Source: Candidatus Parcubacteria bacterium
GTDB taxonomy: Bacteria; Patescibacteriota; Minisyncoccia; Minisyncoccales; JAGMDC01
Length of the DNA stretch: 64,000 bases
Assembly (NCBI GenBank): GCA_023128895.1
Contig: JAGMDC010000003.1
Span: forward strand, 70,514-134,513
Reading direction: 5' to 3'
The notes under the pieces were generated by a model. It had not been told where the DNA came from, searched no databases, and was given only the letters and a program-made list of their open reading frames with translations. Positions 4,595-62,415 of the stretch are shown one piece after another (position 1 is the first letter of the stretch; every line of letters begins with the position of its first letter). The translations under genes and the position numbers were made by a program.

Positions 4595-4760
4595 ATGAGA
4601 GTGTGGGACAATATTTTTCGTAGCGAGAGTTTCAAAATTTGAGACAAATTTTTCAAATAATTTTTGAAACCTGTATGGAATACAAGTTGAGGAAATTTTT
4701 GGGAAATTTGACCGAATTTTGGAAGTTGCAGCAGAAAGGATATTGTTCTACACTCTCATA
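4595..4760. repeat. pair of inverted copies of a ~20-22-nt motif (ATGAGAGTGTGGGACAATAT at 4595-4614; GATATTGTTCTACACTCTCATA at 4739-4760) bounding a ~166-bp unit
   Basis: Seen in sequence; a third copy lies upstream of murA (21040-21061, minus). Confidence 0.6.
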
Positions 4761-10972: not shown

Positions 10973-10990
10973 ATAAAAATATAAAACTTG

Positions 10991-11270
10991 TTGCGGTGCC
11001 TGGAATTGCACCAGGGTCTCGAGCTTCTTTTATATTAACCATTTGTTTCCAAATGGAATGGACTATCCCATCCCCCCGCTTACTTAAATGGGGGGCTCTC
11101 ATTATAGTCTCTGAACCTTCCGAGCGCTCAAAGCGTTGAGTGCTTGGCTTGGCTGCTGATTGTCCAATTAAGGAGTTCCCAGCAATTTCGAGAGTTTGTC
11201 TGCGGAATATTACTATTCCGAGCCACACAATCTGTATGGGGCTCGCAAGATACTACTTCTCCACACCGCT
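10991..11270 (-). tRNA. tRNA(CAU) gene (Met/fMet/Ile2 type, A1xA72 mismatch) interrupted by a group I intron after nt 36
   Basis: Exons 11236-11270 and 10991-11026 fold into a cloverleaf (acceptor GCGGUG/CACCGC, D-stem GAGA/UCUU, anticodon stem CGAGC/GCUCG, loop CCCAU|AA, T-arm CCUGG-UGCAAUU-CCAGG). Confidence 0.75.
11027..11235 (-). ncRNA. group I intron (~209 nt, small bacterial tRNA-intron type)
   Basis: Conserved cores: P AAAUUGCUGGGAAC, Q AAUCAGCAGCCAAGCC, R GGUUCAGAGACUAUAA, S GGGAUAGUCC. P1 pairs exon GAGCCCCAU with IGS GUGUGGCUC with a U.G at the 5' splice site; the intron ends in G. Confidence 0.75.
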
Positions 11271-11943: not shown

Positions 11944-11977
11944 CTAAATTATTCTAAATTCTAAATTCTAAATTCTA
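11944..11977. repeat. heptamer tandem repeat (CTAAATT)x4-5
   Basis: Seen in sequence, intergenic. Confidence 0.8.
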
Positions 11978-17765: not shown

Positions 17766-18734
17766 TCAAAATTCTAACATCAGGGTTTCAAGGGCTAATC
17801 TGGTATTGATGTTAGTCGTAGCAAAAGAAAACTGGAGTTTTGAAATGGTCTTAATAATTTTTTGCAATTGTATTAGAGAATAATTTTTCTGTTTTGGATT
17901 CTGTTCCGCGGATTTCAAAGTATTTATTATTCTGTTCCTAATATGCCTGGACCAAATACTCAAGACTTTTTTAATGTCCTGCGGCTCTTGTTTAGACAAT
18001 TCCTGGACATATTGGAATCGCGCGAACAAATCAAATTGGCTCAATTTATTAAAATCTTTTACTCTTTGCTCTATCTCCAGCAATTTTTTTGGGTCTTTTA
18101 AAAAATTCAACGCCAAACCAGGCCTGCCCAAAGAAAAATCAACAATTTTTTCAATTTGAGATTCAGGAACACTTTGTTCTTTAATTTCCGCGCTGATTTC
18201 GCTTTTATCCACTAAAGAAAATTTAATTTTCTGAACCCTGGACAAAATGGTAGGCAAAATTCTGTCGGGATATTCAGTTATTAAAATAAAAAGCGCCCTT
18301 CCTTTTGGTTCTTCCAAAGTTTTCAAAAAAGAATTCTGCGCTTCCTGAGTCATAGAATGCGCCTGGTCTATCACGGCTGTCTTGAATAAAGAACGAGACG
18401 GGCTTAAAGAAAAATAATACTCTAATTTTCTTAATTGCGCGATTTTCATTTCTTTGTTGTCCGGCTTTAATAATGTAAAATCCGGAAAAATTCCTTTTTC
18501 AATATCACGGCAATTGCGGCAAACCCCGCATGGCTTGTTTGACTCTTTCTCGCCCGCCTGCAACGCTTTCGGCGTAGCCGATGCGGGCAGGCAATTCAGA
18601 AATTTAATAAATTCTATGGCTAATGTTTTCTTGCCAATATGCGACGGCCCATAAAATAAATAAGCGTGGGAAAGCCGTCCCAGCTTATAGGAATTTTCTA
18701 AAAATTTCCATTGTTTTTGATGCCCTAAAATCAT
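17766..18734 (-). CDS. holB: DNA polymerase III delta' subunit
   Basis: Walker A GPSHIGKKT and zinc module CGVCRNCRDI. Confidence 0.8.
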   Translation of the reverse strand: MILGHQKQWKFLENSYKLGRLSHAYLFYGPSHIGKKTLAIEFIKFLNCLPASATPKALQAGEKESNKPCGVCRNCRDIEKGIFPDFTLLKPDNKEMKIAQLRKLEYYFSLSPSRSLFKTAVIDQAHSMTQEAQNSFLKTLEEPKGRALFILITEYPDRILPTILSRVQKIKFSLVDKSEISAEIKEQSVPESQIEKIVDFSLGRPGLALNFLKDPKKLLEIEQRVKDFNKLSQFDLFARFQYVQELSKQEPQDIKKVLSIWSRHIRNRIINTLKSAEQNPKQKNYSLIQLQKIIKTISKLQFSFATTNINTRLALETLMLEF

Positions 18735-26400: not shown

Positions 26401-26415
26401 AAATAAAAAAATGAT

Positions 26416-26586
26416 GAGCGAGGCAACAAGCCCTCAATGGCAAACATCGGAGGCGCCTGAGCATGGTCCGAGCCCCCACACCTAATTTAGGTGTGGGGGC
26501 TCGGTCAGGCGCTGAGATATTAGACCCCAAAATCCCGCTGGGATTTTGAGGGTCGGTGCCTTGAGGACTTCGTTGCCGAGCGAATT
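26416..26586. repeat. ~170-nt structured intergenic element, copy 1 (between dnaK and dnaJ)
   Basis: Terminal ~20-bp inverted repeats GAGCGAGGCAACAAGCCCTCAA/TTGAGGGCTTCGTTGCCgaGCG, with internal hairpins CCGAGCCCCCACACC...GGTGTGGGGGCTCGG and CAAAATCCC-GCT-GGGATTTTG. Confidence 0.85.
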
Positions 26587-26595
26587 ATTTATGAA

Positions 26596-34490: not shown

Positions 34491-34630
34491 AATTATCCCC
34501 TCCTATTTTATGATTTATTGAATGTACTATCTCAAACTTAACAAACTATCTTGAATTTGTAAAGAAAAAATTCAAAAAATAAGTAAAAAAATTCGGGGAA
34601 AGAATTAATTCAAGCCCCATGATTGCGATT

Positions 34631-35026
34631 TTACCAATCGATTACCTCTATGAAGGGATTTTCCGCGCGCATGATCCGAGTCCAAATGTCTATGACTCTC
34701 CGAGGATGGACAGTTTTCCACTCTCCTTTCAAAATAACTCCTATCACACTAACCCTTCTCCCTGGAGTTAAATCTCCAAAATATATATTATTCCAAAGAT
34801 TATAGCTTTCTCCCTCTACTGCCAGATAGTAAGGGCCCAACCTTATCGCTTCACTGAGACACATTCCTTCGCGAGGCATTATTTGGATAATCAATCCTCC
34901 TGCTTTTTCCAATACTTCCATGCAAGAAAGTATTTCTTCTATCATTTGTTCTGTTGTTATCTCTATCTTTTTCTTCCCTTTTATCTCTTTTCCCACCTTT
35001 TTCACTTCTTCCAATATTTTTCCCAT
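34631..35026 (-). CDS. hypothetical small protein, unit 3 of the tandem array (paralogue of 35571..35960)
   Basis: Shares the N-terminal pattern MGxxLxxxxEV..K..KKxT.EAMIEEIxxCM with the 129-aa paralogue; C-terminus divergent. Confidence 0.6.
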   Translation of the reverse strand: MGKILEEVKKVGKEIKGKKKIEITTEQMIEEILSCMEVLEKAGGLIIQIMPREGMCLSEAIRLGPYYLAVEGESYNLWNNIYFGDLTPGRRVSVIGVILKGEWKTVHPRRVIDIWTRIMRAENPFIEVIDW

Positions 35027-35171
35027 ATTTATCTATCACATCCTAATTTGTGCTAAATTTAGTATTACTTATCGTCTTATTTCTGTCAAGACTTTGGTGT
35101 CATGAGTTTGAAAAAATAAGTAAAAAAATTCGGGGAAAAAATTGATTCAATCCCCATGTTCACTATATGTG
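35027..35171 (-). repeat. repeat unit: terminator-like hairpin + remnant of the map 3' end (carrying TTGACA) + RBS region
   Basis: Near-identical to 35427-35570 and partially to 34578-34630 and 35961-36040. Confidence 0.8.
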
Positions 35172-35426
35172 TTAATCCCAAAACTTTTTTGTTGCCCTTA
35201 TTCCGAACTCTGGTTTGCCTTCTCTTGTGACTATGATAAATTCAAACTTATCTTCTCGTTTGACTAAAATCGAATTTATGGCTTGCATCATTTCTTCTTC
35301 ACTAAATGATGTAAATTGTTGCGCGCTTAAATTCTTTTTTATCTCCTCACAAGTGACAACCCCTTTGGAATACACTATTATTTTCATTACGGCTCTTCTA
35401 AGGCCAACATTTTTTGGTTCTGCCAT
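35172..35426 (-). CDS. hypothetical small protein, unit 2 of the tandem array
   Basis: ORF preceded by the same duplicated promoter/RBS module. Confidence 0.55.
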   Translation of the reverse strand: MAEPKNVGLRRAVMKIIVYSKGVVTCEEIKKNLSAQQFTSFSEEEMMQAINSILVKREDKFEFIIVTREGKPEFGIRATKKFWD

Positions 35427-35570
35427 ATTACACCCCTTAATTTATGCTAAATTTAACATAAACTAATCCTTGATTTCTGTCAAGACTTTGGTGTCATGAG
35501 TTTGAAAAAATAAGTAAAAAAATTCGGGGAAAGAATTAATTCAAGCCCCATGATTGCGCCGCCACAAAAA
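35427..35570 (-). repeat. repeat unit (as 35027-35171)
   Basis: Contains CATGACACCAAAGTCTTGACAGAAATCAAGGATTAG, copied from the map C-terminus (..HGPKVLTEIKD*). Confidence 0.8.
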
Positions 35571-35960
35571 TCATCTCACTATTTTTACACTAAAATTCTC
35601 GGAAAGAATTATGTCTTCCCAAATTTTTCTCGCTTGGGCAAGCACTGGGGTCCCTTTCTCCCATAATCGATCCAACCCGCCAGCAAATATTTCATATAAC
35701 TGTTGTTCTAAGGTATCTGAAGTTTGAACTAACAAGTTGCTCCACCCAGCATGAGGTATAGACAAATAATTCCCTGCTATTCTTATCTTTCGTTTCGAAT
35801 CCATCGAATCAACTATCGCAATCTCTAACACTTTTCCAATTTCCGCTGCTTTAGCCATACACTTCATGATTTCTTCTATCATCGCTTCAGATGTCAATTT
35901 TTTTCTCGATTTTTTTTCTTTTTCCACGACTTCATTAATTTTATCTAACACATTTCCCAT
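35571..35960 (-). CDS. hypothetical small protein, unit 1 of the tandem array
   Basis: ORF immediately downstream of map. Confidence 0.6.
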   Translation of the reverse strand: MGNVLDKINEVVEKEKKSRKKLTSEAMIEEIMKCMAKAAEIGKVLEIAIVDSMDSKRKIRIAGNYLSIPHAGWSNLLVQTSDTLEQQLYEIFAGGLDRLWEKGTPVLAQARKIWEDIILSENFSVKIVR

Positions 35961-35998
35961 TTTTTATCACCCCTAATTAGTGCTAAATATAGCATAAA

Positions 35999-36751
35999 CT
36001 AATCCTTAATTTCTGTCAAGACTTTGGGACCATGAGCAGTAATTGCGATAGTGTGCTCAAAGTGCGCGCAGACAGACCCGTCAATTGTTTGAAAAGCATG
36101 CCCGTCTGGACCTCTTCTAATTTTCCAATCCCCTGTAGTGAGCATTGGCTCAATGCAAAAAACCATTCCCGGTTTAATAACCGCGCCAGCGCGGCGCTTG
36201 CCGTAATTCAAAACTTCTGGCTCTTCGTGAAGTTCTTTGCCAATCCCATGCCCGCATAGTTCGCGCACAACTCCGAATCCTTGGTCTTCAGCGTGGCGCT
36301 GGATAGTGTTCCCAATATCTCCAAAAGTGTTTCCTGGACGCGATTTCTTAATTCCCCTCTTCAGCGCTTTCTTTGTCGCCCTTATTAAACGCAAAATTTC
36401 CGGAACAACTTCTCCAACTGGAACAGTTATTGCCATATCAGAAAGATATCCTTTATATTTCAAACCTAAATCTAAGGTTATAATATCTCCCTGCTTTAAC
36501 TTATAATCACACGGAACTTCGTGGACGATTGACTGATTTACTGACGAACACAATGCCGCTGGATACCCGCCATAACCCTTGAATGCCGGTTCTGTGTTAT
36601 ATTTAAAAATAAGGTCCTCTGCGGCCTTATCTAATTGTTTGGTAGTAATCCCCACATCAACCATCTGCTCCAATTGTTTCACAATTTTTGCCAAAATTTT
36701 ACCCGCTTCCGCCATTATTGCGATTTCCTGTTTGGTTTTTATAGAAATCAT
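35999..36751 (-). CDS. map: methionine aminopeptidase type I
   Basis: Pita-bread fold metal ligands (D..D..H..E..E). Confidence 0.9.
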   Translation of the reverse strand: MISIKTKQEIAIMAEAGKILAKIVKQLEQMVDVGITTKQLDKAAEDLIFKYNTEPAFKGYGGYPAALCSSVNQSIVHEVPCDYKLKQGDIITLDLGLKYKGYLSDMAITVPVGEVVPEILRLIRATKKALKRGIKKSRPGNTFGDIGNTIQRHAEDQGFGVVRELCGHGIGKELHEEPEVLNYGKRRAGAVIKPGMVFCIEPMLTTGDWKIRRGPDGHAFQTIDGSVCAHFEHTIAITAHGPKVLTEIKD

Positions 36752-37407
36752 TTAATTTTCTCAAGGATTTCTTTGAAGACATCGTCAATCGGCTGTTCGC
36801 CGTTAATTTTAATAAGCCGATTTTGTTGTTTATAATACTCAACTACTTCTACAACTGTATTATCATAATAATCAAGACGATTATTTATGGCTTCAACGCT
36901 ATCATCGCGCCGAGTAATTAACTCTCCCCCGCATTTATCGCAAACTTTCAATTTCTTAAATTCGCCCACCCATGGAATTAATCGCCCACACTCCTTGCAA
37001 ATCCTTCTTTTGGTCAAACGGCCAATCGCTTCTTCTCTGGAAATATCAATTAATAAATTAAAAGTATTTTCTTTGCGTTCCAAAAATTCTAAAAATCTAT
37101 CTAATGCTTGCGCCTCGCTAACTCTGCGAGGAGCGCCATCAAGAATAAATCCCTGATCTTCTTTAAGATTATAAGCAAAACTATGCATCCATAAAGTTGC
37201 TGCCAAATCATCTAATGGGAATCCGCCCTCTCTCACAATTTTTTTAACTCTCGCGCCCGTGTCTGTGTCAGCTTTTAATAAATCTCTAAATAAATCACCA
37301 GTGGAAATATAACAAAAATCGCCAAATTCTTTCATTAAAAGTTTCGCTTGTGTCCCTTTGCCTGAACCAGACCTTCCTATTAAAGTAAAATTTATTGGTT
37401 TGTCCAT
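36748..37407 (-). CDS. adk: adenylate kinase with zinc-ribbon LID
   Basis: P-loop GRSGSGKGTQ; CKECG...CDKCG; start set at MDKPINF because the track's upstream extension lies inside repeat copy 2. Confidence 0.85.
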   Translation of the reverse strand: MDKPINFTLIGRSGSGKGTQAKLLMKEFGDFCYISTGDLFRDLLKADTDTGARVKKIVREGGFPLDDLAATLWMHSFAYNLKEDQGFILDGAPRRVSEAQALDRFLEFLERKENTFNLLIDISREEAIGRLTKRRICKECGRLIPWVGEFKKLKVCDKCGGELITRRDDSVEAINNRLDYYDNTVVEVVEYYKQQNRLIKINGEQPIDDVFKEILEKIK

Positions 37408-37417
37408 AATGATAAAT

Positions 37418-37589
37418 GAGCAAGGCAACAAGTCCTCAATGGCAAACATCGGAGGCGCCTGAGCATGGTCCGAGCCCCTACACCTAAATTAGGTGTGGGG
37501 GCTCGGTCAGGCGCTGAGATATTAGACCCCAAAACCCACCTTAGGGGTTTGAGGGTCGGTGCCTTGAGGGCTTCGTTGCCTTGCGAATT
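37418..37589. repeat. ~170-nt structured intergenic element, copy 2 (between secY and adk)
   Basis: Same architecture as 26416-26586 with compensatory substitutions in stems. Confidence 0.85.
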
Positions 37590-37599
37590 TAATTAAACG

Positions 37600-38877
37600 T
37601 TAAAATGTTTCGTAGTCCCTCATTTGCAATTGCGCGTTAATCTGCTTCATTGTTTCCAGCACAACTGACACAATAATCAAGAGAGCTGTTCCTCCCAACA
37701 AGAACTGAAACACCATCACGCCGGTAATTCCGCCTATAATAGACGGCATTATCGCGATAGTTCCCAAAAATAAAGCCCCAAAAAGCAAAATCCTGTTCAG
37801 AATATAATACAAAAAATTAGCAGTTGACTCTCCCGGCCTTATTCCAGGCACAAAGCCCCCCATTTTCTGCAAATTTGTTGCTATCGCCTTAGGGTCAAAA
37901 GTTACAGCAGTGTAAAAATAAGTGAACAGCACAACTAAAATAAAATACAAAGTCGCGTAGACCCAGGGATTTTGAAATAAATCCCCTACTGTTTGCGCGA
38001 CACTTCCAACTATGCCGCCCGCGCCTGCCAAAAAACTGGCGATCATTCCCGGGAAAAGCATTAGAGACAAAGCGAAAATAATAGGGATTACGCCTGCCGG
38101 ATTAATATTTAATGGCAAATAAGTTGAGACCCCGCCATACATTTTCTGCCCCCGCACTCTTTTTGCGTAAGAAACAGGGATATTCCGGCGCGCTTCGTTC
38201 ACAACAACCACGCCGGCAATTATAAGAATAGCCATTATGAAAAAAGCAATGTATGTAGGAATTGCGGAAGGATCCCAAGTGATAAACATCTGGCGAATAT
38301 TATTTGGAAAATCAGCAATAATTCCAGCGAAAATCAAAAGCGAAACTCCATTGCCAATTCCTTTTTCGGTAATCAGTTCTCCCAGCCACATTAAAAACAC
38401 GGCTCCAGCGACCACAGTTAAAATTGAACTGGCCATTAAAGCGGGTGAAAGAGAGCCGATAAGCCCCTGTCTTTGAAATAAAGTTAACATAGCAAATCCC
38501 TGCAATGTAGCCAAAGGCACAGTGAGCACTCTTCCATATTGATTAAATTTTTGCCTGCCTGCTTCCCCTTCCTCTTTATACATTTTTTCAAACGCGGGAA
38601 AAATCATGGTCAAAAGTTGTAAAATAATCACTGCTGTAATATACGGCCCCAATCCAAGCATCACAATGGAAAGATTGTCCAACGCCCCGCCGGTAAACAT
38701 ATTCATAAGCCCGAACATCTGATTTCTCTCAAAAAACTCTCTTAAATTTTCTATATCAATTCCGGGGATAGGAATATTCGCGCACAGCCGAAAAACAAAA
38801 AAAATAAATAAAACAAACAACATTTTATTGCGCAAATCGTGAATTTTCAATATTTGTATAAGTTTATCTAAAATCAT
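37600..38877 (-). CDS. secY: preprotein translocase SecY
   Basis: 10-TM SecY pattern. Confidence 0.95.
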   Translation of the reverse strand: MILDKLIQILKIHDLRNKMLFVLFIFFVFRLCANIPIPGIDIENLREFFERNQMFGLMNMFTGGALDNLSIVMLGLGPYITAVIILQLLTMIFPAFEKMYKEEGEAGRQKFNQYGRVLTVPLATLQGFAMLTLFQRQGLIGSLSPALMASSILTVVAGAVFLMWLGELITEKGIGNGVSLLIFAGIIADFPNNIRQMFITWDPSAIPTYIAFFIMAILIIAGVVVVNEARRNIPVSYAKRVRGQKMYGGVSTYLPLNINPAGVIPIIFALSLMLFPGMIASFLAGAGGIVGSVAQTVGDLFQNPWVYATLYFILVVLFTYFYTAVTFDPKAIATNLQKMGGFVPGIRPGESTANFLYYILNRILLFGALFLGTIAIMPSIIGGITGVMVFQFLLGGTALLIIVSVVLETMKQINAQLQMRDYETF

Positions 38878-39317: not shown

Positions 39318-39851
39318 TTACTTTTTAGTTTTTTTATCAACATCGCTACGCTCGCCTGCATCGCTATGCGAAGCATTGCGGGCAGGTGTGTTTCCTAACA
39401 TCTCTAACGCTGCAATAGTTGCTTTTGCGTTGTTTAATTTATTTCTGGTCTTCCCGAGTACCTTTGAAGATATATTTTTAATTCCAGCCAAAGAACAAAT
39501 TACCCTGACTGTGCCGCCTGCGACTAATCCTCTGCCTTCTTTTTGCGGCTTAAGCAGGACTTTTGCGGCTCCAAATTTGGAAATCACTTCATAAGGAATA
39601 GTGCCTTGTGAAATAGGAACTTTGATTAAATTCTTTTTTGCCAACCTGGTTGCTTTTTCTATGCCCTGCGCTACATCAGAACCCTTGGCCACTCCAACTC
39701 CAACTCTCCCTTTTTTATCGCCAACAACCATTACAGCGCGAAACCGAAGACGGCGGCCGCCAGCAGTCACCCGTGTTACTCTTGCCAAATCCAAAAGTTT
39801 AGAATCGAACTCGTCTTTTGGCTTATTTTTACGAAATCTTTGATTAAACAT
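39318..39851 (-). CDS. rpsE: 30S ribosomal protein S5
   Basis: uS5 pattern; start set at MFNQRF (the track extends to 39890). Confidence 0.9.
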   Translation of the reverse strand: MFNQRFRKNKPKDEFDSKLLDLARVTRVTAGGRRLRFRAVMVVGDKKGRVGVGVAKGSDVAQGIEKATRLAKKNLIKVPISQGTIPYEVISKFGAAKVLLKPQKEGRGLVAGGTVRVICSLAGIKNISSKVLGKTRNKLNNAKATIAALEMLGNTPARNASHSDAGERSDVDKKTKK

Positions 39852-39877
39852 AATAAAATAATAAATGATTTTTACTC

Positions 39878-39905
39878 TTGACAAAACCAATCAATGTGCT
39901 ATAAC
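39878..39905 (+). promoter_or_regulatory. sigma70-like promoter TTGACA-16-TATAAC
   Basis: Seen in sequence 20 nt upstream of the SD AAGGAGGT. Confidence 0.6.
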
Positions 39906-40613: not shown

Positions 40614-40636
40614 ATTTTAACTTAAAAATAAATAAT

Positions 40637-40803
40637 GAGCGAGGCAACAAGCCCTCAATGGCAAACATCGGAAGCGCCTGAGCATGGTCTCCGAGCCACG
40701 CCTACTGGCGGGGCGAGGAGTCAGGCACTGAGATATTAGACCCCAAAATTCCGCTGGGAATTTTGAGGGTCGGTGCCTTGAGGGCTTCGTTGCCTTGCGA
40801 ATT
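40637..40803. repeat. ~170-nt structured intergenic element, copy 3 (between rplF and rplR)
   Basis: Outer helix and hairpin A conserved; hairpin B replaced by a different GC-rich hairpin. Confidence 0.85.
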
Positions 40804-40821
40804 GTTATAAACTACAAAACC

Positions 40822-51116: not shown

Positions 51117-51170
51117 TTCTTATTCTATATTCTATATTCTATATTCTATATTCTATATTCTATATTCTAT
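51117..51170. repeat. heptamer tandem repeat (TATTCTA)x7 overlapping the fusA stop codon
   Basis: Seen in sequence. Confidence 0.85.
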
Positions 51171-53272
51171 ATTCTCTTGCCTTCAATGATTTCTTGTGTG
51201 ATGTTTGCAGGTATCTCTTCATAATCGTCAAATTCCATTGTGAAATTGCCTCTGCCCTGCGTCAGAGAACGTAAAGCAGTAGCATACCCAAACATTTCAG
51301 ATAAAGGAATTTTCGCGCTTATAACTTTCGTATTCAACCTATCTTCTGTTTCTTCAATCTTGCCGCGTCTGCTGGACAAATCGCCGATAACATCGCCGAA
51401 AAATTCTTCTGGAATAACTACTTCTAATTTCATAATTGGTTCTAATAGATACGCTTGCGCGCGCTTAGCCGCGCTCTGCAAAGCCATTGACCCGGCAATT
51501 TTAAACGCGATTTCAGAAGAATCAACCTCGTGGAAAGACCCGTCATATAGGGCGCAGGACAAATCAATCAATGGATAACCAGCCACAACGCCTTTTGACA
51601 TTGCTTCTTTAATTCCTTTTTCTACCGCCGAAATAAATTCTTTTGGAATAACTCCTCCTTTTATCTCGTCAATAAATTCAAAGCCCTCTCCTCTTTCTTT
51701 TGGCTCAACTCTGACCCAAACATGGCCGTATTGTCCCCTGCCGCCTGACTGCTTAATGTATTTCGCTTCTGCTTGAGCTTCTGTCTTAATTGTTTCTTTA
51801 TACGCAACCTGGGGCCTGCCAACATTTGCTTCAACATTAAATTCTCTTTTCATTCTATCCACAAGAATATCCAAATGAAGTTCGCCCATTCCGGAAATAA
51901 TTGTTTCGCCGGTGTCCGGGTCTCCTTTAATTTTGAAAGTCGGGTCTTCGTCTGACAATTTTTTAAGCGCCAAGCCCATTTTCTCCTGGTCTGCTTTTGT
52001 CTTTGGTTCAATGCGGATGGAAATTACCGGCTCTGGGAAAGTAATCTCTTCTAAAATCACAGGAGCGTTTTCCGCGCACAAACTATTTCCAGTTCCAGTA
52101 TTTTTAAGACCCACTGTTGCCGCGATGTCGCCGGCAAATAATTCATCAACCTCCTCCCTTTCCGCGGCATGCATTCTCAAAATTCTTCCCAAACGCTCTT
52201 TTTCGCCAGTATTGGCGTTTACGATATAAGAACCCTTTATTATAGAACCGGAATAAACTCTGAAATATGTCAAGGTTCCCACATAAGGGTCTGCGGCGAT
52301 TTTGAAAGCCAAAGCGCAGAACGGTTCGTCATCGCTTGCTTTCTTTTCAACCTCCTTGTTTGTCTTGGGGTCTATGCCTTTAATTGGAGGCAGGTCAACA
52401 GGCGAAGGCAGGTAATCAACAGCAGCGTCCAATACCAGCTGAACTCCGGTATTTTTCAGCGCTGAACCGCAAAATACTGGAATCAGTTTATAGTCAATAG
52501 TTGCTTTTCTTAAAACTTGTTTGATTTTCTCAACAGGAATTTCTTTGCCGGCAAGATATTGCTCCAACATTTCCGCATCTTCCGCAGCAACTTTTTCAAT
52601 AAGTTTTTCGCGCCATTTTTTCGCGTCGTCTAATAAATCCGCAGGAACCTCTTCTTCCTTCACTTCCTCGCCTAACTTGCCCCCAAATCTCATTGCCTTC
52701 ATAGACAGCAAATCAATCACGCCTTTAAGATTTTCTTCCAAACCAATGGGAATCTGCATTGCTACAGCATTAGGGGAAAGTTTTTGCCCAATTGAAGCAA
52801 AACTCTTTTCAAAAGACGCGCCCATTCTGTCTAATTTATTTATAAAACAAATTCTTGGAACATTAAATTTATCTGCCTGTCGCCACACTGTTTCTGACTG
52901 CGGCTCCACTCCGGCAACTCCGTCAAAAACAACCACAGCGCCGTCCAGTACCCGCAGAGACCTTTGGACCTCCACTGTAAAGTCAATATGTCCGGGAGTG
53001 TCAATAATATTTATCCTGTGTTCATTGGTCTTGTCTTTTGTGGTATATTCTCTTGGAGACCAAAAACAAGTTGTTGCCGCGGAAGTAATGGTTATACCTC
53101 TTTCCCGCTCCTGTTCCATCCAGTCCATAACTGCCTCGCCCTCGTGGACTTCGCCGATTTTATGGGAAATTCCCGTGTAAAACAAAACACGCTCGGTAAA
53201 TGTTGTCTTGCCGGCGTCAATATGAGCTATTATACCTATGTTACGATATTTTTCTATTGAATATTTGCGCAT
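51167..53272 (-). CDS. fusA: elongation factor G
   Basis: [14 protein letters not shown] and EF-G domain IV/V patterns. Confidence 0.95.
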
Positions 53273-53361: not shown

Positions 53362-53417
53362 AGAATAGAATTTAGAATATAGAATTTAGAAGAATTATTC
53401 CAGATTCTATATTCTAT
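53362..53417. repeat. heptamer repeats (TAGAATT/TAGAATA) with an inverted copy ATTCTATATTCT; overlaps the rpsG stop
   Basis: Same TTCTAWA family as 51117 and 11944. Confidence 0.8.
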
Positions 53418-53889: not shown

Positions 53890-54300
53890 TTATTTTGGTT
53901 TCTTGGTGCCATACTTGCTTCTTACTTGTTTTCGCCCTTCCACTCCGCCAGTATCCAAAACGCCCCTCACAATATGATACCGCACTCCGGGCAAATCCTT
54001 TACTCTGCCTCCCCTTAATACAACAACTGAATGCTCCTGTAAATTATGCCCAATGCCTGGAATATACGCTGTCACCTCCATTCCATTGCTCAACCGCACC
54101 CTTGCGACTTTGCGCATTGCTGAATTCGGCTTTTTGGGAGTAGTTGTAAAAACTTTTAAGCACACTCCCCTCTTGAAAGGAGAAGGATGTTTAATTGGCT
54201 TGTTTTTTAACACATTAAAACTGAAACTCAAAGCAGGCCTTTTAGTCGGCTTTTTCGCTGTTCTCCTATTTTTTTTAAGTAATTGATGAATTGTCGGCAT
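53890..54300 (-). CDS. rpsL: 30S ribosomal protein S12
   Basis: uS12 pattern. Confidence 0.9.
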
Positions 54301-54301
54301 A

Positions 54302-54350
54302 ATAAAATCATTAACGAATTATTCAATTAACGAATTAACGAATTACGAAT
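54302..54350. repeat. tandem AATTAACGAATT-type repeats in the rpsL 5' UTR
   Basis: Seen in sequence. Confidence 0.7.
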
Positions 54351-54360
54351 TAAAATAATT

Positions 54361-54415
54361 AAGCATAAGTATATATGCTTATATATAATCTAACAAAACG
54401 CAAAAAAAAAGTCAA
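54361..54415 (-). promoter_or_regulatory. putative rpsL promoter (TTGACT-17-TAGATT) followed by the palindrome AAGCATAAGTATATATGCTT
   Basis: Read on the minus strand. Confidence 0.5.
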
Positions 54416-54416
54416 A

Positions 54417-54591
54417 TTTTGTAAAAAAAATTGCCCAAAATAGGATGCATTTTTCTGCTCGCTCCTGCCCGCAACGCTTCGCGTAGCGATGCAGGCGGGC
54501 GGAAAAGTAAATAAACTCGCTTCGCTCGCTTATTTTCTTTTCGCTCACTTCTCAAAAAAATGAGGACGCAGCGCGCCCCATAAATTATGTA
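54417..54591. repeat. ~170-bp conserved 3' tail of cassette copy 1, with a GC-rich palindromic core (54464-54502)
   Basis: Near-identical to 55853-56020 (1 indel). Confidence 0.9.
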
Positions 54592-54593
54592 TA

Positions 54594-55457
54594 CTATATT
54601 GTCTCGAGTTTTTTTACGAGTTTATCGACTCTCCTATCGAGTTTCCTTCTAGAAATTTTACCCGAATTCCATTTTTTAGAAAGTTCTATAATCTCTGCCC
54701 GTTCTCTGCCAATCACTATTACTCCCTTATCCCGCAATTTTTCATAAACTCGCGCAGGTTTCTTCAAACCTTTTCTTGGATAGGTTTGCCATGTCAGCAT
54801 ATGGTCCGCCGCTTTCATGATCAGCTTTATTTGCTCTCTGTCAAGCCAGTCAAATCCGAGAAACTTATCTACACTATCCAACAAATTTTCGTGCGCAAAA
54901 ATTTCATTTGCTAAACTCTCTACCGTGCCATGGCATACCATCTGATATATAATCTCCCGCAAGACTTGAGTTCTATACTCTTTCTCGTCTATCCCGACTT
55001 CCTTCACTGCTTCAATCATCTTCTCCACATTATGCGGAAAAGATAATTTACTCGTATTCAGAAACATCTCTTTCCACGGCTCTTTATCTAAACCCTGGCC
55101 TATTCTCTGCGAAAACTGGCTCACTGTTCTTACTTCCTCAACAGTGAAATGTCTGCGGATATCCCTGAACAAAAGGAGCAAACTCGTTCGTCCCAAACTA
55201 ACCATGTCTAATGTTGTGAGCAAACGCAAATCAATGTCTGCAGGAATTTTCAATATTGCTTCCAGCACATCTAGCCAATTTCTCTTGCGCCACGCGTCCC
55301 AAACTTTGCTAATTTGCTCATTTAAGAACAAATTCTTTTGCTCGCTGAAAAATTCCTCGCCCGCCGCGTCCAGAAATCCTATTTCTGAAAGATATGCAAA
55401 CTCTTCTTCTTTCAAAACCGATTTTGCTTTTATTTCTTCTTCCACTTTTATACCCAT
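54594..55457 (-). CDS. 287-aa hypothetical protein P1 (cassette copy 1)
   Basis: Paralogue of 56024..56887: the N-terminal ~150 aa are ~90% identical at DNA level, the C-terminal half diverged. Confidence 0.7.
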   Translation of the reverse strand: MGIKVEEEIKAKSVLKEEEFAYLSEIGFLDAAGEEFFSEQKNLFLNEQISKVWDAWRKRNWLDVLEAILKIPADIDLRLLTTLDMVSLGRTSLLLLFRDIRRHFTVEEVRTVSQFSQRIGQGLDKEPWKEMFLNTSKLSFPHNVEKMIEAVKEVGIDEKEYRTQVLREIIYQMVCHGTVESLANEIFAHENLLDSVDKFLGFDWLDREQIKLIMKAADHMLTWQTYPRKGLKKPARVYEKLRDKGVIVIGRERAEIIELSKKWNSGKISRRKLDRRVDKLVKKLETI

Positions 55458-55458
55458 T

Positions 55459-55650
55459 TTATACCTCCTTTTTTTCTTTCAAATTCTGCTCCCATAATTC
55501 ATCTCTTCTCTCTTTTTCCGCTTTTTCCAACAGGACTTCGCAGCGCTTCACATTTTCCTGCGCTTCCTCCAACTCATTTTTTTTCAACTCAACATATGCC
55601 TTAGCAAGCCCAACTCTGGCCCTGCAAGACTCAACCTCTCTTTCGCCCAT
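55459..55650 (-). CDS. 63-aa coiled-coil protein (cassette copy 1), translationally coupled to P1
   Basis: Stop TAA then ATG of P1 1 nt later; SD GGAGG inside its 3' end; shares the C-terminus ..LWEQNLKEKKEV with 56891..57079. Confidence 0.6.
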   Translation of the reverse strand: MGEREVESCRARVGLAKAYVELKKNELEEAQENVKRCEVLLEKAEKERRDELWEQNLKEKKEV

Positions 55651-55721
55651 TTTTTTTCCTATCTTTTCTGATCAAAACACTTTCCTTAGTATGCTTTCCT
55701 CTACAAATTGTAATGTGCTTC

Positions 55722-55782
55722 TCTGATATCCATTATATTACAATTTTCTCCTAAATTGTCAAATAACTTTCAGCGCGCCGAG
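55722..55782 (-). promoter_or_regulatory. cassette 1 promoter TTGACA-17-TAATATAAT with the downstream operator-like palindrome TACAAATTGTA
   Basis: Duplicated at 57137-57197. Confidence 0.65.
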
Positions 55783-55852
55783 GCCACAGCGAAGTGACCT
55801 CGGCAGAATACCTTCGCTTGATGGTGGGGTATTAAAAATGTATCCCTGAGGT

Positions 55853-56020
55853 ACATTTGTAAAAAAAATTGCCCCAAATAGGATGCATTTTTCTGCTCGC
55901 TCCTGCCCGCAACGCTTCGCGTAGCGATGCAGGCGGGCGGAAAAGTAAATAAACTCGCTTCGCTCGCTTATTTTCTTTTCGCTCACTTCTCAAAAAAATG
56001 AGGACGCAGCGCGCCCCATC
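55853..56020. repeat. ~170-bp conserved 3' tail of cassette copy 2
   Basis: Direct repeat of 54417-54591. Confidence 0.9.
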
Positions 56021-56023
56021 ATA

Positions 56024-56887
56024 TTATTTTATTTCTATCGCAAGCCCGGCTTTCTTGATTACCCGCTTGACTTTCCTGACCATTTTTTCATATGAGAATT
56101 TATTTCTGTCGTATCCGTCGCGAATCTCTATTATCTTCTCTCTCGCTTCACCAATCCAGACATCGTGTCCCTCTTCTATTAGCGTTTTATACACATTGCA
56201 CGCGGCTCTAAAACTCTTTCGCGACAGCAGAGTATCACCTGCTTGTAACAGTTCTCTTGCGTGCATCTGTTGCCCGTGCATATACTTATCCATATATGCC
56301 ACAATTTCAACAAAATCACTGTTACCCTCTAGATATTCAACCAAACCTTGGTTTTCCTTGGTTATTTCAATCATGTGTTCCCAAATTACTTGTATATACT
56401 CGTCTTTGTCTATCCTTGTTTCCGCTACTGCTTCAATCATCTTTTCTATGCCGTCCTCCGCATCTGGAAAATACTTTCTTGCCATTTCCAGAAACATCTC
56501 TTTCCACGGCTCTTTATTTAAATCCTGACCTGCTCTCCGCGAAAACTGACTCACTGTTCTTACTTCCTCAATAGTGAAATGTCTGCGGATATTCCAGAAC
56601 AAAAGGAGCAAACTCGTTCGTCCCAAATTAACCATGTCTAATGTTGTGAGTAAACGCAAATCAATGTCTGAATCAATGTCTGCAGGAATTTTCAATATTG
56701 CTTCAAGCACGCCTAGCCAATTTCTCTCGTACCACGCGTCCCAAACTTTGCTAACTTGCTCATTTAAGAACAAATTCTTTTGCTCGCTGAAAAATTCCTC
56801 GTCTGCCGCATCCCAAAACCCTACTCCTAAAAGATACGCAAACTCTTCTTCTTTCAAAACCGATTTTGCTTTTATTTCTCCTACCAT
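56024..56887 (-). CDS. 287-aa hypothetical protein P2 (cassette copy 2)
   Basis: See P1. Confidence 0.7.
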   Translation of the reverse strand: MVGEIKAKSVLKEEEFAYLLGVGFWDAADEEFFSEQKNLFLNEQVSKVWDAWYERNWLGVLEAILKIPADIDSDIDLRLLTTLDMVNLGRTSLLLLFWNIRRHFTIEEVRTVSQFSRRAGQDLNKEPWKEMFLEMARKYFPDAEDGIEKMIEAVAETRIDKDEYIQVIWEHMIEITKENQGLVEYLEGNSDFVEIVAYMDKYMHGQQMHARELLQAGDTLLSRKSFRAACNVYKTLIEEGHDVWIGEAREKIIEIRDGYDRNKFSYEKMVRKVKRVIKKAGLAIEIK

Positions 56888-56890
56888 ATC

Positions 56891-57079
56891 TTATACCTCC
56901 TTTTTTTCTTTCAAATTCTGCTCCCATAATTTATCGTCTTCCTCTTTTTCCACTTGTTCTAATTGTCCTTTCCAATACGCCAAATCTTCCATCGCTCCCT
57001 CAAATGCCACTCTTTTTCGCTCAACATCCATCTCTGCGGCCTCAACCATACGCTTACAATGCTCTTTTTTTTCTTCCAC
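56891..57079 (-). CDS. 62-aa coiled-coil protein (cassette copy 2), GTG start
   Basis: SD AAGGAGG 9 nt upstream of the GTG. Confidence 0.55.
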   Translation of the reverse strand: MEEKKEHCKRMVEAAEMDVERKRVAFEGAMEDLAYWKGQLEQVEKEEDDKLWEQNLKEKKEV

Positions 57080-57136
57080 TTTTCATGCCTCCTTTTTTTT
57101 CTTTCATTATAGCACTCGCCTCAATATGCTTGCCTC

Positions 57137-57197
57137 TACAAATTGTAATGTGCTTCTTTGGTATCCATTATATTACAATTTTCTCCCAATTTGTCAA
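57137..57197 (-). promoter_or_regulatory. cassette 2 promoter + operator palindrome
   Basis: Same as 55722-55782. Confidence 0.65.
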
Positions 57198-57232
57198 ATA
57201 ACTTTTAGTGAATTTCACTCCCAAGCACAATT

Positions 57233-57272
57233 AAAATGACAATCCGTGCCAACGCGCACGGATTGTCATTTT
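57233..57272. terminator. perfect 17-bp inverted repeat AAAATGACAATCCGTGC-caacgc-GCACGGATTGTCATTTT (bidirectional terminator)
   Basis: Seen in sequence after the stop of the M50 peptidase gene. Confidence 0.75.
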
Positions 57273-57310
57273 AATGATAATATTGCTTTCCCTCGTAGTT
57301 TTCGCACTTC

Positions 57311-57952
57311 TCAAAAGAACGGAACGCCGACGATTAAATAAAACAAATAGTTAATCAAAGGCAATATCCATTGAAGGCAGAAAAAAATCACGAAAAGCAA
57401 AATAAACAAACCGTACTGAGTTAAAATGATTTTTACATTTTCCATACTTCGCGGCAGAAACGCGAAAAGAATATGAGACCCGTCCAACGGCGGGATTGGC
57501 AAAAGATTAAACACTGCTAAAAGCAGATTAACCCATACAATATATCCGAAAACAAAAATCAAACTCTGGGAAAAATGGTCCATTCCAAAAGGCAAAAATC
57601 TCAATAATAACCCAAACACAATTGCCAATGAAATATTTGCCAAGGGTCCTGCGGCGCCGACTTTTGCCGCGCCGTATTTCTGGTCTCGGAAATTATACGG
57701 ATTTATTGGAACTGGCTTTGCCCAACCGAAAATCACGCCAGCGCCAGTAAGCATACTTGTTAAAATCAAAAACCCTGGCACAATGATAGAACCTATTGGG
57801 TCCAAGTGCTTTAATGGATTTAATGTCAGACGGCCAGCCATTTTCGCGGTGGGGTCGCCCAAAAAATTAGCGACTTCGCCGTGCGCAACCTCATGTATCA
57901 CAACCGAAAAAAGAAATATAATAATAATTAAAATCAATACAAAAATTTCCAT
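57311..57952 (-). CDS. M50-family site-2 protease-like membrane metalloprotease
   Basis: HEVAHG motif, multi-TM. Confidence 0.8.
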   Translation of the reverse strand: MEIFVLILIIIIFLFSVVIHEVAHGEVANFLGDPTAKMAGRLTLNPLKHLDPIGSIIVPGFLILTSMLTGAGVIFGWAKPVPINPYNFRDQKYGAAKVGAAGPLANISLAIVFGLLLRFLPFGMDHFSQSLIFVFGYIVWVNLLLAVFNLLPIPPLDGSHILFAFLPRSMENVKIILTQYGLFILLFVIFFCLQWILPLINYLFYLIVGVPFF

Positions 57953-58053
57953 ATTTTTATTATATCAAAAAATCAAACTCTTGCCAAATTTTTGGAAATG
58001 GTCTATGATAACGATTGACTAATTATCATTTATCAGTAATCATTTATCTAATT

Positions 58054-58269
58054 ATGAAACAGTGTCCTATTTGCCAAAAAAAATCAATAATGGCACGAAA
58101 GTTGAACAAACTAAGGGGAAAGTATAACCCAAGCCCTAAAAAACGAAAATATCCCAATCTGCAATGGGTAAGAGTTCCTATGGATGTAAAACCAAAATTC
58201 AAGGAATTTGCGGGCAAAAGAATTCTTGCCTGCACAAAATGCATTAAATCGCTTTCAAAATTAAAATAA
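58054..58269 (+). CDS. rpmB: 50S ribosomal protein L28 (Zn-ribbon)
   Basis: CPICQKK...ACTKC; start set at MKQCPIC. Confidence 0.75.
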   Translation: MKQCPICQKKSIMARKLNKLRGKYNPSPKKRKYPNLQWVRVPMDVKPKFKEFAGKRILACTKCIKSLSKLK

Positions 58270-58350: not shown

Positions 58351-58520
58351 TAAAGCCCTGCGTTCTTTTTGTTGCAAAGATCACTAGATAGTCAAAGCCC
58401 TGCGTTCTCTTTAGAATCTGGAAAGCAATCCATAAGGGTGCTCCCTTTTGTTGCAAAGATCACTAGATAGTCAAAGCCCTGCGTTCTCTTTAGAATCTGG
58501 AAAGCAATCCACGTGGGTGT
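58351..58520. repeat. 79-bp tandem repeat, ~2.2 copies
   Basis: Units 58367-58431 and 58446-58510 identical; partial leading copy. Confidence 0.85.
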
Positions 58521-61023: not shown

Positions 61024-62415
61024 TCAACCCCTATCATTGCGAAATTTATTCTGGAAAAAATCTTTGAGGTCTTTGACTTTTATTCTTTGCTGCTTCATTG
61101 TAATGCGGTCACGGACTGTTAAATCATCATTTTCCAATGTTTCAAAATCTATTGTCAGGCAGAAAGGCGTGCCAATTTCGTCCTGGCGGCGGTAGCGGCG
61201 GCCTATTGAGCCAACCTCGTCATACTGGCAAACAAACTTAAATTTTAACAACTGATATACTTCTTTTGCTTTTTTTACCAAATCCGGCTTGTTTTTTACT
61301 AATGGAAAAACAGCGATTTTCACAGGCGACAAGCGCTTATCCAAGTTTAGAACCGCCTCAACCTCTTTCACTGATTTGGTTGTTTCTGTTCTTCCGCCTT
61401 TTATCTCGGAATACGCCTCGCATAGAAACGCCAAAGCGCTTCTTCCTACTCCAACAGATGTTTCAATAACATAAGGCGTATATTTCTCTTTTGTGTCAGG
61501 GTTAAAATACTTTAATTCCTCTTTGCTGTGTTTGGTATGATTAGATAAATCATAATCTCCCCTATTATGGACTCCTTCTATTTCCTTCCATCCAAAGGGA
61601 AACTTGTATTCAATGTCAATTTGCCTCTTAGCGTAATGCGCTCTGTCCTTTCTTGGTATTTCTATGGCGCGCAGGTTTTCTTTTTTAATCCCTAAATCAA
61701 TATACCAGTTCATTCGCTGTTCTTTCCAATATTCAAACCAGTCATCCGGAGTTTTCGCGTCTTTCGGATTACCCGCCCGCATCGCTACGCTTCGCTTGCG
61801 AAGCGTTGCGGGCGGGGAGAACCATTGCATTTCCATTTGCTCAAACTCGCGCACGCGAAAAATAAAATTTCCCGGAGTTATCTCGTTTCTAAACGCTTTG
61901 CCAATTTGCGCGATTCCGAAAGGCGGCTTCAGGCGCATGGAATTCATCACATTCAAAAAATTTACATAAATCCCCTGACAGGTTTCAGGCCTTAAATACG
62001 CAATAGAACTGTCATCTTCAACAGGCCCAACAAATGTTTTCATCATCAAATTAAATTTTTTCGGCTTTGTGAGCCCGCCGCCGCACTCCGGACAAATATT
62101 TTTTTGAAGTTCATCCAGCTTAAATCGCTTGTGGCATTTCCTGCACTCAACTAATTCATCGGCAAACCCGGCTGTAAGATGGCCTGACGCCTGCCATACT
62201 TTTGGCGACATTAAAATACTCGCGTCTATCCCAACAATATTATCCTGTTTTTTTGTCATTTCATCCCACCAGAGTTGTTTAATATTTCTTTTCATCTCCG
62301 CGCCCAACGGCCCAAAATCATAACAACTGCCAAAACCGCCGTATATCTCTGACGACAAAAAAACAAATCCGCGGCGTTTGCACAAAGATATAATTTTATC
62401 CATTAAATTAATCAT
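61024..62415 (-). CDS. glyQS: glycyl-tRNA synthetase (alpha2 type) with an in-frame palindromic-element insertion
   Basis: Class II motifs; FRNEITPGNFIFRVREFEQMEMQWF. Confidence 0.9.
   Translation of the reverse strand: MINLMDKIISLCKRRGFVFLSSEIYGGFGSCYDFGPLGAEMKRNIKQLWWDEMTKKQDNIVGIDASILMSPKVWQASGHLTAGFADELVECRKCHKRFKLDELQKNICPECGGGLTKPKKFNLMMKTFVGPVEDDSSIAYLRPETCQGIYVNFLNVMNSMRLKPPFGIAQIGKAFRNEITPGNFIFRVREFEQMEMQWFSPPATLRKRSVAMRAGNPKDAKTPDDWFEYWKEQRMNWYIDLGIKKENLRAIEIPRKDRAHYAKRQIDIEYKFPFGWKEIEGVHNRGDYDLSNHTKHSKEELKYFNPDTKEKYTPYVIETSVGVGRSALAFLCEAYSEIKGGRTETTKSVKEVEAVLNLDKRLSPVKIAVFPLVKNKPDLVKKAKEVYQLLKFKFVCQYDEVGSIGRRYRRQDEIGTPFCLTIDFETLENDDLTVRDRITMKQQRIKVKDLKDFFQNKFRNDRG
61772..61817. 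repeat. GC-rich palindromic element CCCGCCCGCATCGCTACGCTTCGC-TTGC-GAAGCGTTGCGGGCGGGG inside glyQS (encodes ..SPPATLRKRSVAMRAGNP..)
   Basis: Related in sequence to the cassette-tail core at 54464-54502. Confidence 0.8.

Follow-up and report, generated by a model that had tools for sequence, protein, structure and literature searches.

Two tandem two-gene units upstream of rpsL in a Patescibacteria (Parcubacteria-group) bacterium, found within the 64,000-nucleotide stretch of DNA analysed here (the window), are best explained as ancient paralogues that would each specify a helical binding scaffold and its coiled-coil partner. Taken whole, this reading is held tentatively, at somewhat under an even chance; as to the nature of the pair, the likeliest is a binding scaffold without enzymatic activity, accompanied by a coiled-coil partner. 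The pair is a real, undescribed and very fast-evolving orphan unit, and it is shown to belong natively to a small group of Parcubacteria at the genus level. Its novelty lies in the absence of a match to any known family, fold or system; no new mechanism is demonstrated.

The units are co-oriented on the minus strand, lie approximately 1,435 nt apart and share the same order, that is, a promoter, an 85-90-nt leader, a coiled-coil ORF of 62 or 63 aa, a coupled 287-aa ORF and an intrinsic terminator (Table 1). Both copies have a promoter and a terminator of their own, as expected of the tandem, self-contained two-gene transcription unit proposed in the first-pass annotation. The strong TTGACA promoter that it assigned to each unit is also present, but with a spacer of 16 nt and not 17. 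Translational coupling, with a Shine-Dalgarno sequence inside the small gene, is likewise borne out: the proximal unit has its stop and start codons arranged as TAA-A-ATG, the distal unit as TAA-GAT-ATG, and the AGGAGG Shine-Dalgarno sequence of the large gene is located within the small gene. The perfect 17-bp terminator thought to bracket the unit is, however, found on the distal side only and, because it directly follows the M50 peptidase gene, it is read as the terminator of that gene and not as part of the cassette.

Table 1. Features of the two units and their surroundings, numbered from the first nucleotide of the window
Feature	Position	Strand	Remarks
Perfect 17-bp hairpin	57226-57272	minus	Directly 3' of M50 peptidase gene; distal side only
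M50 peptidase gene, upstream neighbour	57311-57952		Pfam PF02163
Distal promoter-like site, TTGACA-16-TAATAT	57170-57197	minus	Also in L001, L084, L085
Distal 5' leader, non-coding	57080-57169	minus	Palindrome TACAATTTGTA at 57137-57147
Distal small ORF, 62 aa, GTG start, acidic coiled-coil	56891-57079	minus	C-terminal motif DKLWEQNLKEKKEV
Distal large ORF, 287 aa, all-alpha, C-terminal type A	56024-56887	minus	
Distal intrinsic terminator, GGGGCGCGCTGCGTCC + T7	55992-56019	minus	
Distal 131-nt structured repeat	55861-55991	minus	Begins right after terminator T run; closes with its own T8 run
Inter-unit spacer	55763-55860	minus	Two small hairpins, including GCCGAGG...CCTCGGC; found at no other junction
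Proximal promoter-like site, TTGACA-16-TAATAT	55735-55762	minus	
Proximal 5' leader	55651-55734	minus	Palindrome at 55702-55712
Proximal small ORF, 63 aa, ATG start, coiled-coil	55459-55650	minus	C-terminal motif DELWEQNLKEKKEV
Proximal large ORF, 287 aa, all-alpha, C-terminal type B	54594-55457	minus	
Proximal intrinsic terminator	54554-54581	minus	
Proximal 131-nt structured repeat	54423-54553	minus	Stretch missing in L001
rpsL promoter-like site, TTGACT-17-TAGATT + upstream TG	54387-54415	minus	Kept in L001, L084, L086, L093
rpsL (S12), then rpsG, fusA	53890-54300	minus	Fixed downstream neighbour

The two copies are ancient paralogues, distinguished by C-terminal types A (distal) and B (proximal). 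A near-identical block begins 19 codons before the end of the small gene and extends to codon ~135 of the large gene, with a dS of 0.02 in the small-gene portion and 0.13 over large-gene codons 0-135, whereas the C-terminal half of the large gene is saturated at synonymous sites. Because of this disparity, the alternation of similar and dissimilar regions, earlier taken for conserved/variable domain swapping, is better ascribed to gene conversion between ancient paralogues, and the conserved N-terminal half reflects a recent event of this kind and not domain constraint. The identity of the N-terminal halves is otherwise much as described (~88-91% at the DNA level, with one 12-bp indel, followed by diverged C-terminal halves), but its extent is ~135 codons and not ~150. 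The locus thereby resembles concerted tandem paralogues (gene-conversion mosaics) in that low-dS tracts alternate with saturated ones, N-terminal halves group with others of the same genome but C-terminal halves with those of the same type in other species, one locus (L002) is a recombinant hybrid in which an A-type small gene is joined to a B-type large gene, and a copy has been lost in the close relative L001. Loss of copies is also seen between near-identical strains, and copies are shown to be gained, lost and hybridised through homologous recombination. Such behaviour accounts for the evolution of the locus, not for its function.

Tandem B+A copies are also present in L084, an independent assembly from another species, which, together with the saturation of the C-terminal halves, argues that the duplication is no assembly artefact, an outcome that the first-pass annotation had named as fatal to its own interpretation. 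A collapsed or expanded repeat might in principle give rise to a near-identical tail and N-terminal block, but the probability that the units are a duplication artefact or spurious non-coding ORFs is negligible: the two C-terminal halves differ in their nearest relatives among other samples, units occur singly or in pairs in independent assemblies, and the large gene is under purifying selection (dN/dS 0.24-0.38). The dS of the large gene, 0.046, compares with 0.045-0.047 for the M50 gene and fusA, while its dN/dS, which is below 1 in all pairwise comparisons, is 0.24-0.34 vs 0.07-0.10 for the flanks. The unit is evidently inherited vertically together with those flanks and kept under moderate constraint. 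It also evolves very fast, far faster than its neighbours: between lineages that share 92% identity in EF-G, the large proteins are 30-44% identical.

The units occupy the slot between the M50 peptidase gene and rpsL, and the first-pass annotation had called for a search for the pair in other genomes; the pair does exist in other genomes, and the large gene occupies the same slot in at least four genus-level relatives, upstream of rpsL in L001, L084, L085 and L093. In 23 of 34 other Patescibacteria loci the M50 and rpsL genes are adjacent (32-234 nt apart), in keeping with the proposed insertion into an otherwise conserved neighbourhood, and the inserts at this junction in other Patescibacteria are unrelated genes. 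The window neighbours include M50, rpsL, rpsG, fusA and an adenylate-kinase-like gene, and the ORF at 58015-58269 is read, on its sequence, as a putative ribosomal protein L28 gene. With housekeeping genes on its flanks and the same position in all four of those relatives, the locus does not show the association with defence islands for which a check had been suggested.

The setting raises the question of whether the pair assists translation or str-operon expression as an accessory factor particular to this lineage, for instance as a ribosome-associated helical-repeat protein. The cassette lies directly upstream of and co-directional with rpsL in all four near lineages, the rpsL promoter directly abuts the cassette terminator (in L001, L084, L086 and L093), and the promoter and Shine-Dalgarno sequence are strong. 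Such a role is nevertheless improbable, for the cassette is transcribed from its own promoter to its own terminator, distant family members adjoin MFS or RND-type genes and not ribosomal genes, and the extreme divergence and the loss and gain of copies are unlike those of core translation factors.

The family of the large protein is very small, comprising 14 clusters among 1.84 billion representatives; a word-indexed homology search gave two matches in 5.8 billion clusters with a single sequence and four proteins with a family profile. With only ~14 clusters, conservation statistics for the family are thin. No significant match is found in Pfam, NCBIfam, PADLOC, PHROG, PDB or BFVD, so that the protein has, as first stated, no recognisable domain, by family or by fold, and a check for homology to a housekeeping enzyme likewise found none. 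The TPR models of Pfam stay short of the gathering threshold (TPR_6/7/8/14 at E 0.02-0.3, each in one of 17 members), and a scan of genome contigs with a 4-sequence alignment, as well as a search of the literature for the family, found nothing. The AF2 model of the large protein is confident, all-alpha and reminiscent of helical repeats, with 15 helices (pLDDT 86, pTM 0.75); an earlier model, built on four aligned sequences, could not be used (pLDDT 71, pTM 0.47). Helical-hairpin repeat scaffolds (TPR, 14-3-3, alpha-SNAP/Sec17-like) are among the closest known systems, the resemblance being generic and the TM-scores low. The invariant residues of the family are mostly hydrophobic or structural (L123, P127, F132, Y161), and the protein is without a catalytic signature. 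An RxxxxH motif of HEPN type was considered for the window copies and rejected because its histidine is not conserved across the family.

An all-alpha, non-enzymatic and very fast-evolving protein encoded by ancient, diversified tandem paralogues might be expected of an immunity or anti-effector array, or of a phage-defence sensor, with types A and B representing two specificities. We regard this as unlikely, since none of the adjacent genes encodes a cognate toxin, a secretion protein or an effector, the PADLOC-DB defence HMMs match none of the 17 family members (best E-value 0.014, for one member), no homologue is found in viral-contig scans (two family queries) or in phage records (queried with the proximal large protein only), and dN/dS does not exceed 1 in any pair. 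A second paralogue lies close by in L083 too, a point that would sit well with an array.

The small proteins of both copies end in D[EK]LWEQNLKEKKEV, and thus do keep their C-terminus, as had been claimed. The frame of the distal small ORF is maintained across indels in L001 and L002, and the small ORF is conserved in L084, L086, L093 and L094, with a [DR]xxW[AE][EQ] motif and with stop and start codons that overlap or adjoin. At L085, L087 and L088 the small ORF is missing and the large gene is intact, which argues against an obligatory antitoxin and implies that a complex of small and large protein is not obligatory. Searches of Pfam and NCBIfam with the small proteins match no DNA-binding family and give weak coiled-coil-type matches only. 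In relatives the distal leader retains conserved boxes, ATCAGARAAGCAC ... GCGAGYGCTTTGATGA. Its indels are not multiples of three, so that the leader is non-coding, and a structured RNA was also set aside, there being a weak 8-bp closing stem only, without covariation. Rfam covariance models give chance-level matches to leader and tail (E of 1.4 or worse), and the five metagenome loci that contain the leader pattern are chance matches, since none of them encodes a family member. The leader palindrome TACAATTTGTA, originally interpreted as an operator, is found in both window copies; it is broken in L001, and L084, L085 and L093 have no palindrome, so that the relatives do not keep the proposed operator.

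These features bear directly on whether the pair is a type II toxin-antitoxin or abortive-infection module in which the small protein neutralises the large one and autoregulates through the leader palindrome. Like toxin-antitoxin operons, the unit is a compact module of variable copy number in which a small upstream ORF is coupled to a larger one under its own promoter, and it evolves fast and forms hybrid alleles. Unlike them, it matches no known toxin or antitoxin domain, family or fold, its RxxxxH string is a feature of the window copies and not of the family, its small acidic coiled-coil protein matches no DNA-binding family of Pfam or NCBIfam and is dispensable in three lineages, its palindrome is not conserved, and its position is fixed and vertically inherited. 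Moreover, L002 combines small and large genes of different types (A and B, respectively), which implies that there is no strict cognate pairing. Overall, the features tested provide no positive support for the toxin-antitoxin or defence interpretation with which the locus was first presented, and a module of this type is distinctly unlikely.

A binding scaffold with a coiled-coil partner thus remains the preferred reading of the pair. The large protein would be a cytoplasmic helical-repeat (TPR/14-3-3/SNAP-like) scaffold, produced stoichiometrically with its partner and probably bound to it through the partner's conserved C-terminal Trp motif. The diverged C-terminal halves of types A and B would then recognise different targets. 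It is the speed of divergence that suggests that the target is itself fast-evolving, whether a phage, host or competitor factor. Extended further, the pair could be a conflict module, hitherto undescribed and anchored in the chromosome, of the episymbiotic Parcubacteria. It would consist of a non-enzymatic helical sensor or neutraliser and its coiled-coil partner, with recombination between A and B as ancient types of specificity and a repeat-driven gain and loss of cassettes that needs no dedicated recombinase, although we consider this rather unlikely. If the pair does mediate an interaction with phage or with the host cell, it would constitute a new type of non-enzymatic module specific to these episymbionts; otherwise, it still illustrates cleanly how concerted evolution proceeds in a reduced genome. 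In either case the locus is a well-delimited example, with a strong promoter, a str-operon neighbour, a hybrid allele and copy loss.

The tail that follows both units is 164 nt long and 99% identical between them, close to the near-identical non-coding tail of ~170 bp first reported, which is nonetheless not one element. It is made up of the cassette terminator (GGGGCGCGCTGCGTCC followed by a T run) and an inserted 131-nt structured repeat, and its near-identity marks a recent gene-conversion tract, not special constraint. The repeat would act as a structured spacer of REP/terminator-like character, offering the homology needed for unequal crossing-over, and would be neither a coding nor a mobilising part. 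It resembles REP/BIME-like repeats and MITEs in its stacked hairpins, which include GCGAAGC-type loops, in the T runs that bound it, in its variable nested GC-hairpin insertion and in the occurrence of the tail element in tandem copies in L084. It differs from them in that the full element is present only after the cassette terminator and is not dispersed in the 64-kb window, and in that neither terminal inverted repeats nor a transposase could be recognised at the tail element. A scan of metagenome contigs for the tail element gave no matches, in a collection that evidently lacks known contigs such as L084.

It is in this context that a mobile gene cassette, either integron-like or MITE-mobilised, with the 3' repeat as recombination site, has to be weighed. 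Compared with most Patescibacteria, the locus contains the unit as an insertion, the structured repeat (87-131 nt) exactly follows the cassette terminator in all five copies seen and is found only at the two loci with visible tandem large-gene copies, and the pairing of its hairpin 1 is retained by compensatory changes. Against this, the unit and its flanks have equal dS, and four lineages carry it at the same position; no integrase, transposase or other recombinase is present among the neighbouring ORFs examined; the 64-kb window holds no cassettes or full repeats beyond the two cassette-linked ones; the viral-contig scans with two family queries and the phage records searched with the proximal large protein contain none; and, unlike integron gene cassettes, single-copy loci, including L001, are without the 3' repeat. 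The chance that the unit is mobile in this sense is therefore slim, and vertical descent with homologous recombination is favoured. The inner GC hairpin of the repeat does have a related copy elsewhere in the window, at 39349-39386, and, at the position of the 17-bp hairpin that follows the M50 gene, L001 has a different hairpin.

Two cassettes, each a small coiled-coil ORF (63 and 62 aa) followed by a 287-aa all-alpha large ORF, lie in the same orientation upstream of rpsL, and all genes in this region are on the minus strand. Alignment of the units and a repeat scan give 88-91% identity between the large ORFs over approximately the first 135 codons, with a single 12-bp indel; the C-terminal halves are strongly diverged and whole-protein identity is 56%. 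The small ORFs have only their C-terminus in common, D[EK]LWEQNLKEKKEV, and the stop and start codons of small and large gene are coupled, with AGGAGG inside the small gene. The first-pass annotation described most of this anatomy correctly. It erred in treating the near-identical tail as a single feature (see below) and in bracketing each unit by a 17-bp terminator: the perfect hairpin is found on a single side and is read as the terminator of the M50 peptidase gene. The promoter spacer, previously given as 17 nt, is 16 nt in a consensus scan. Each unit has its own promoter and terminator, and rpsL a separate promoter-like site, and the units are therefore independent transcription units.

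Coordinates of features in the window and, where so labelled, at related loci
Feature	Position	Strand	Remarks
rpsL	53890-54300	-	then rpsG, fusA in succession
Separate rpsL promoter-like site	54415-54387	-	consensus scan
Intrinsic terminator, proximal unit	54579-54563	-	consensus scan
Promoter-like TTGACA-16-TAATAT, proximal unit	55762-55735	-	consensus scan
Intrinsic terminator, distal unit	56017-56001	-	consensus scan
Promoter-like TTGACA-16-TAATAT, distal unit	57197-57170	-	consensus scan
Perfect 17-bp hairpin	57226-57272		directly 3' of upstream M50 gene
Tail-element-like stretch	57273-57290		just past M50 stop codon
GC-rich hairpin	39349-39386		weaker at 61772-61816, 18545-18591
S5-like ORF	39318-39890
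AT-rich short tandem repeats	51121-51175, 11950-11990, 53365-53416, 54302-54350
Tandem duplicate of 79-nt unit	58367-58519		repeat family D17
Structured repeat, ~185-200 nt	26405-26589, 37407-37605, 40626-40819		three copies
Second tandem orphan-gene array	34571-36036		ORFs 34631-35026 (131 aa), 35571-35960 (129 aa)
Group I intron	11039-11248	-	Rfam RF00028, 78 bits
ORF downstream of intron	10289-11011
165-bp insertion	L001:5845-6009		92% identical to window 4596-4760
Additional 96-aa ORF	L093:135-425

The conserved tail of ~170 bp, measured at 164 nt and 99% identity, is a composite of the cassette terminator and a separate inserted element of 131 nt. At L001, a JGI locus with flanks 98.6% identical to the window and a single type A unit directly upstream of rpsL, the short terminator stands alone, without the 131 nt that follow it in the window. 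L084, a locus of another species (rpsL 91% identical) from an independent assembly, also has tandem copies, in the order type-B large gene, terminator, element, promoter, 81-aa small ORF, type-A large gene, terminator, element, element, rpsL; its three related copies of the element (87-93 nt) each directly follow the T run of a cassette terminator. Hairpin 1 of the element keeps its pairing via compensatory changes, and the element has no Rfam match. Tandem large-gene copies are visible at two loci, the window and L084, and the full element was seen nowhere else; we infer that it is a REP- or terminator-like structured spacer which adds homology for recombination. Immediately 3' of the M50 stop, the sequence GAGAAGTGCGAAAA is similar to the element's first 14 nt, GAGAAGTGAGCGAAAA, and may be the remnant of a copy upstream of the distal cassette (compare L084). 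The window copies contain an additional nested GC hairpin that recurs, with a GCGAAGC-type loop, within the 3'-terminal part of the S5-like ORF, where it encodes part of the C-terminal extension, ...PARNASHSDAGERSDVDKKTKK.

The host EF-G has a best match of 71% identity among 185,579 species representatives, and its best matches are mostly MAGs labelled Parcubacteria or Patescibacteria. The gap between the M50 peptidase gene and rpsL is only 32-234 nt in 23 of the 34 Patescibacteria loci that have both genes, so the cassette has been inserted into a junction that is otherwise conserved. In other lineages the slot is taken by unrelated genes. At nine of the 34 loci (L006, L016, L022, L032, L036, L055, L061, L072, L077) unrelated genes specific to the lineage fill 0.6-3.8 kb between M50 and rpsL, and the junction may be a recurrent insertion slot. 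Among related loci, L083 has two paralogues, and more distant family members adjoin MFS or RND-type genes. In L084, L086, L093 and L094 the small ORF conserves a C-terminal [DR]xxW[AE][EQ] motif and an overlapping or adjacent stop/start; it is absent from L085 (M50, leader, large gene, rpsL), L087 and L088. At L093 the order is conserved leader, additional 96-aa ORF, 72-aa small coiled-coil ORF, large gene, rpsL, rpsG, fusA.

The leader, between promoter and small ORF, is 85-110 nt long and has sequence boxes conserved in all near relatives. A coding function was rejected, since the leader carries indels whose lengths are not divisible by three, and its structure amounts to a weak 8-bp closing stem for which no covariation was found among relatives. 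The palindrome TACAATTTGTA, proposed earlier as an operator, is intact only in the two window copies; in L001, L084, L085 and L093 it is either broken or missing. Comparison lends no support to operator function.

Between window and L001, dS is 0.046 for the large gene, 0.045 for M50 and 0.047 for fusA, whereas dN/dS is 0.34 for the large gene and 0.07-0.10 for the flanks, which indicates vertical inheritance under relaxed yet real constraint. Within the genus-level group, identities of 92% for EF-G, 88-96% for rpsL and 85% for M50, against just 30-44% for the large proteins, point to a very fast-evolving family. Between the window's A and B copies, dS in the conserved block is 0.02 (the final 19 small-gene codons) and 0.13 (large-gene codons 0-135), and the C-terminal half of the large gene is saturated. 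The C-terminal halves group by type across species (type A: window distal, P0002, P0003, P0006; type B: window proximal, P0001, P0004, P0005, P0007, P0009, P0011), whereas the N-terminal halves group by genome. From these patterns, A and B are paralogues of ancient origin that gene conversion has homogenised in part, which accounts for the conserved and variable domains better than the functional domain swapping first proposed. A hybrid at L002, in which an A-type small gene is joined to a B-type large gene and the type changes where the conserved block begins, is the expected product of unequal crossing-over.

The suggestion that the system is undescribed was borne out: for the large protein, a word-indexed search of 5.8 billion clusters gave just two relatives, and exhaustive profile searching of 1.84 billion representatives with HMMER gave 14 clusters. 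The two members with source names in the collection are annotated only as 'hypothetical protein'. None of 17 aligned members has a significant match in Pfam, NCBIfam, PADLOC or PHROGs, nor has the family in PDB sequence profiles, the proximal large protein in phage records or two family queries in viral contigs. The family's invariant positions are L, P, F and Y, and the large protein may be a non-enzymatic helical-repeat scaffold. The toxin-antitoxin or defence reading is unsupported. A mobile cassette, a catalogued defence system or a toxin-antitoxin of the classical kind fits the data less well than a native, fast-evolving protein pair, probably highly expressed, because no toxin or antitoxin signature was found in the cassette proteins, three lineages do without the small ORF, small and large genes show no cognate A/B pairing, no operator is conserved, and the neighbours are housekeeping genes at a fixed, vertically inherited position. 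The fast divergence and the ancient, diversified paralogues would still fit a role in conflict (immunity or sensing). Lineage-specific unknown genes are plentiful in Patescibacteria (PMC9132574), and this locus is a clean one, open to experiment.

Several other repeats and orphan features were observed. AT-rich short tandem repeats (TATTCTA heptamers and AATTCGTTAATT-type units) occupy several intergenic leaders around fusA, rpsG and rpsL, and the corresponding rpsL leader of L085 carries a long array of AAAATTC type. The intergenic D17 duplicate (96% identical) lies near an ORF resembling ribosomal protein L28. In the ~185-200-nt repeat, a long outer stem, GGCAACGAAGCCCTCAAGG / CATTGAGGGCTTGTTGCC, encloses inner hairpins that vary between copies with pairing kept; the repeat may represent a MITE or an unknown ncRNA. 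Its third copy, directly upstream of rplR within the ribosomal-protein gene cluster, was the only one scanned against Rfam at a lax E-value threshold and had no match, and a whole-window scan was also empty there. The ORFs of the second array have no Pfam match, and its non-coding flanks are repeated too (families D8, D9, D11). The group I intron lies between two ORFs, the downstream one having only a sub-threshold match to Pfam Terminase_5, a terminase-type family. Finally, the L001 insertion, downstream of fusA, resembles a window stretch 45 kb distant, to which it also aligns weakly in inverted orientation, and thus has the look of a palindromic, MITE-like mobile repeat.
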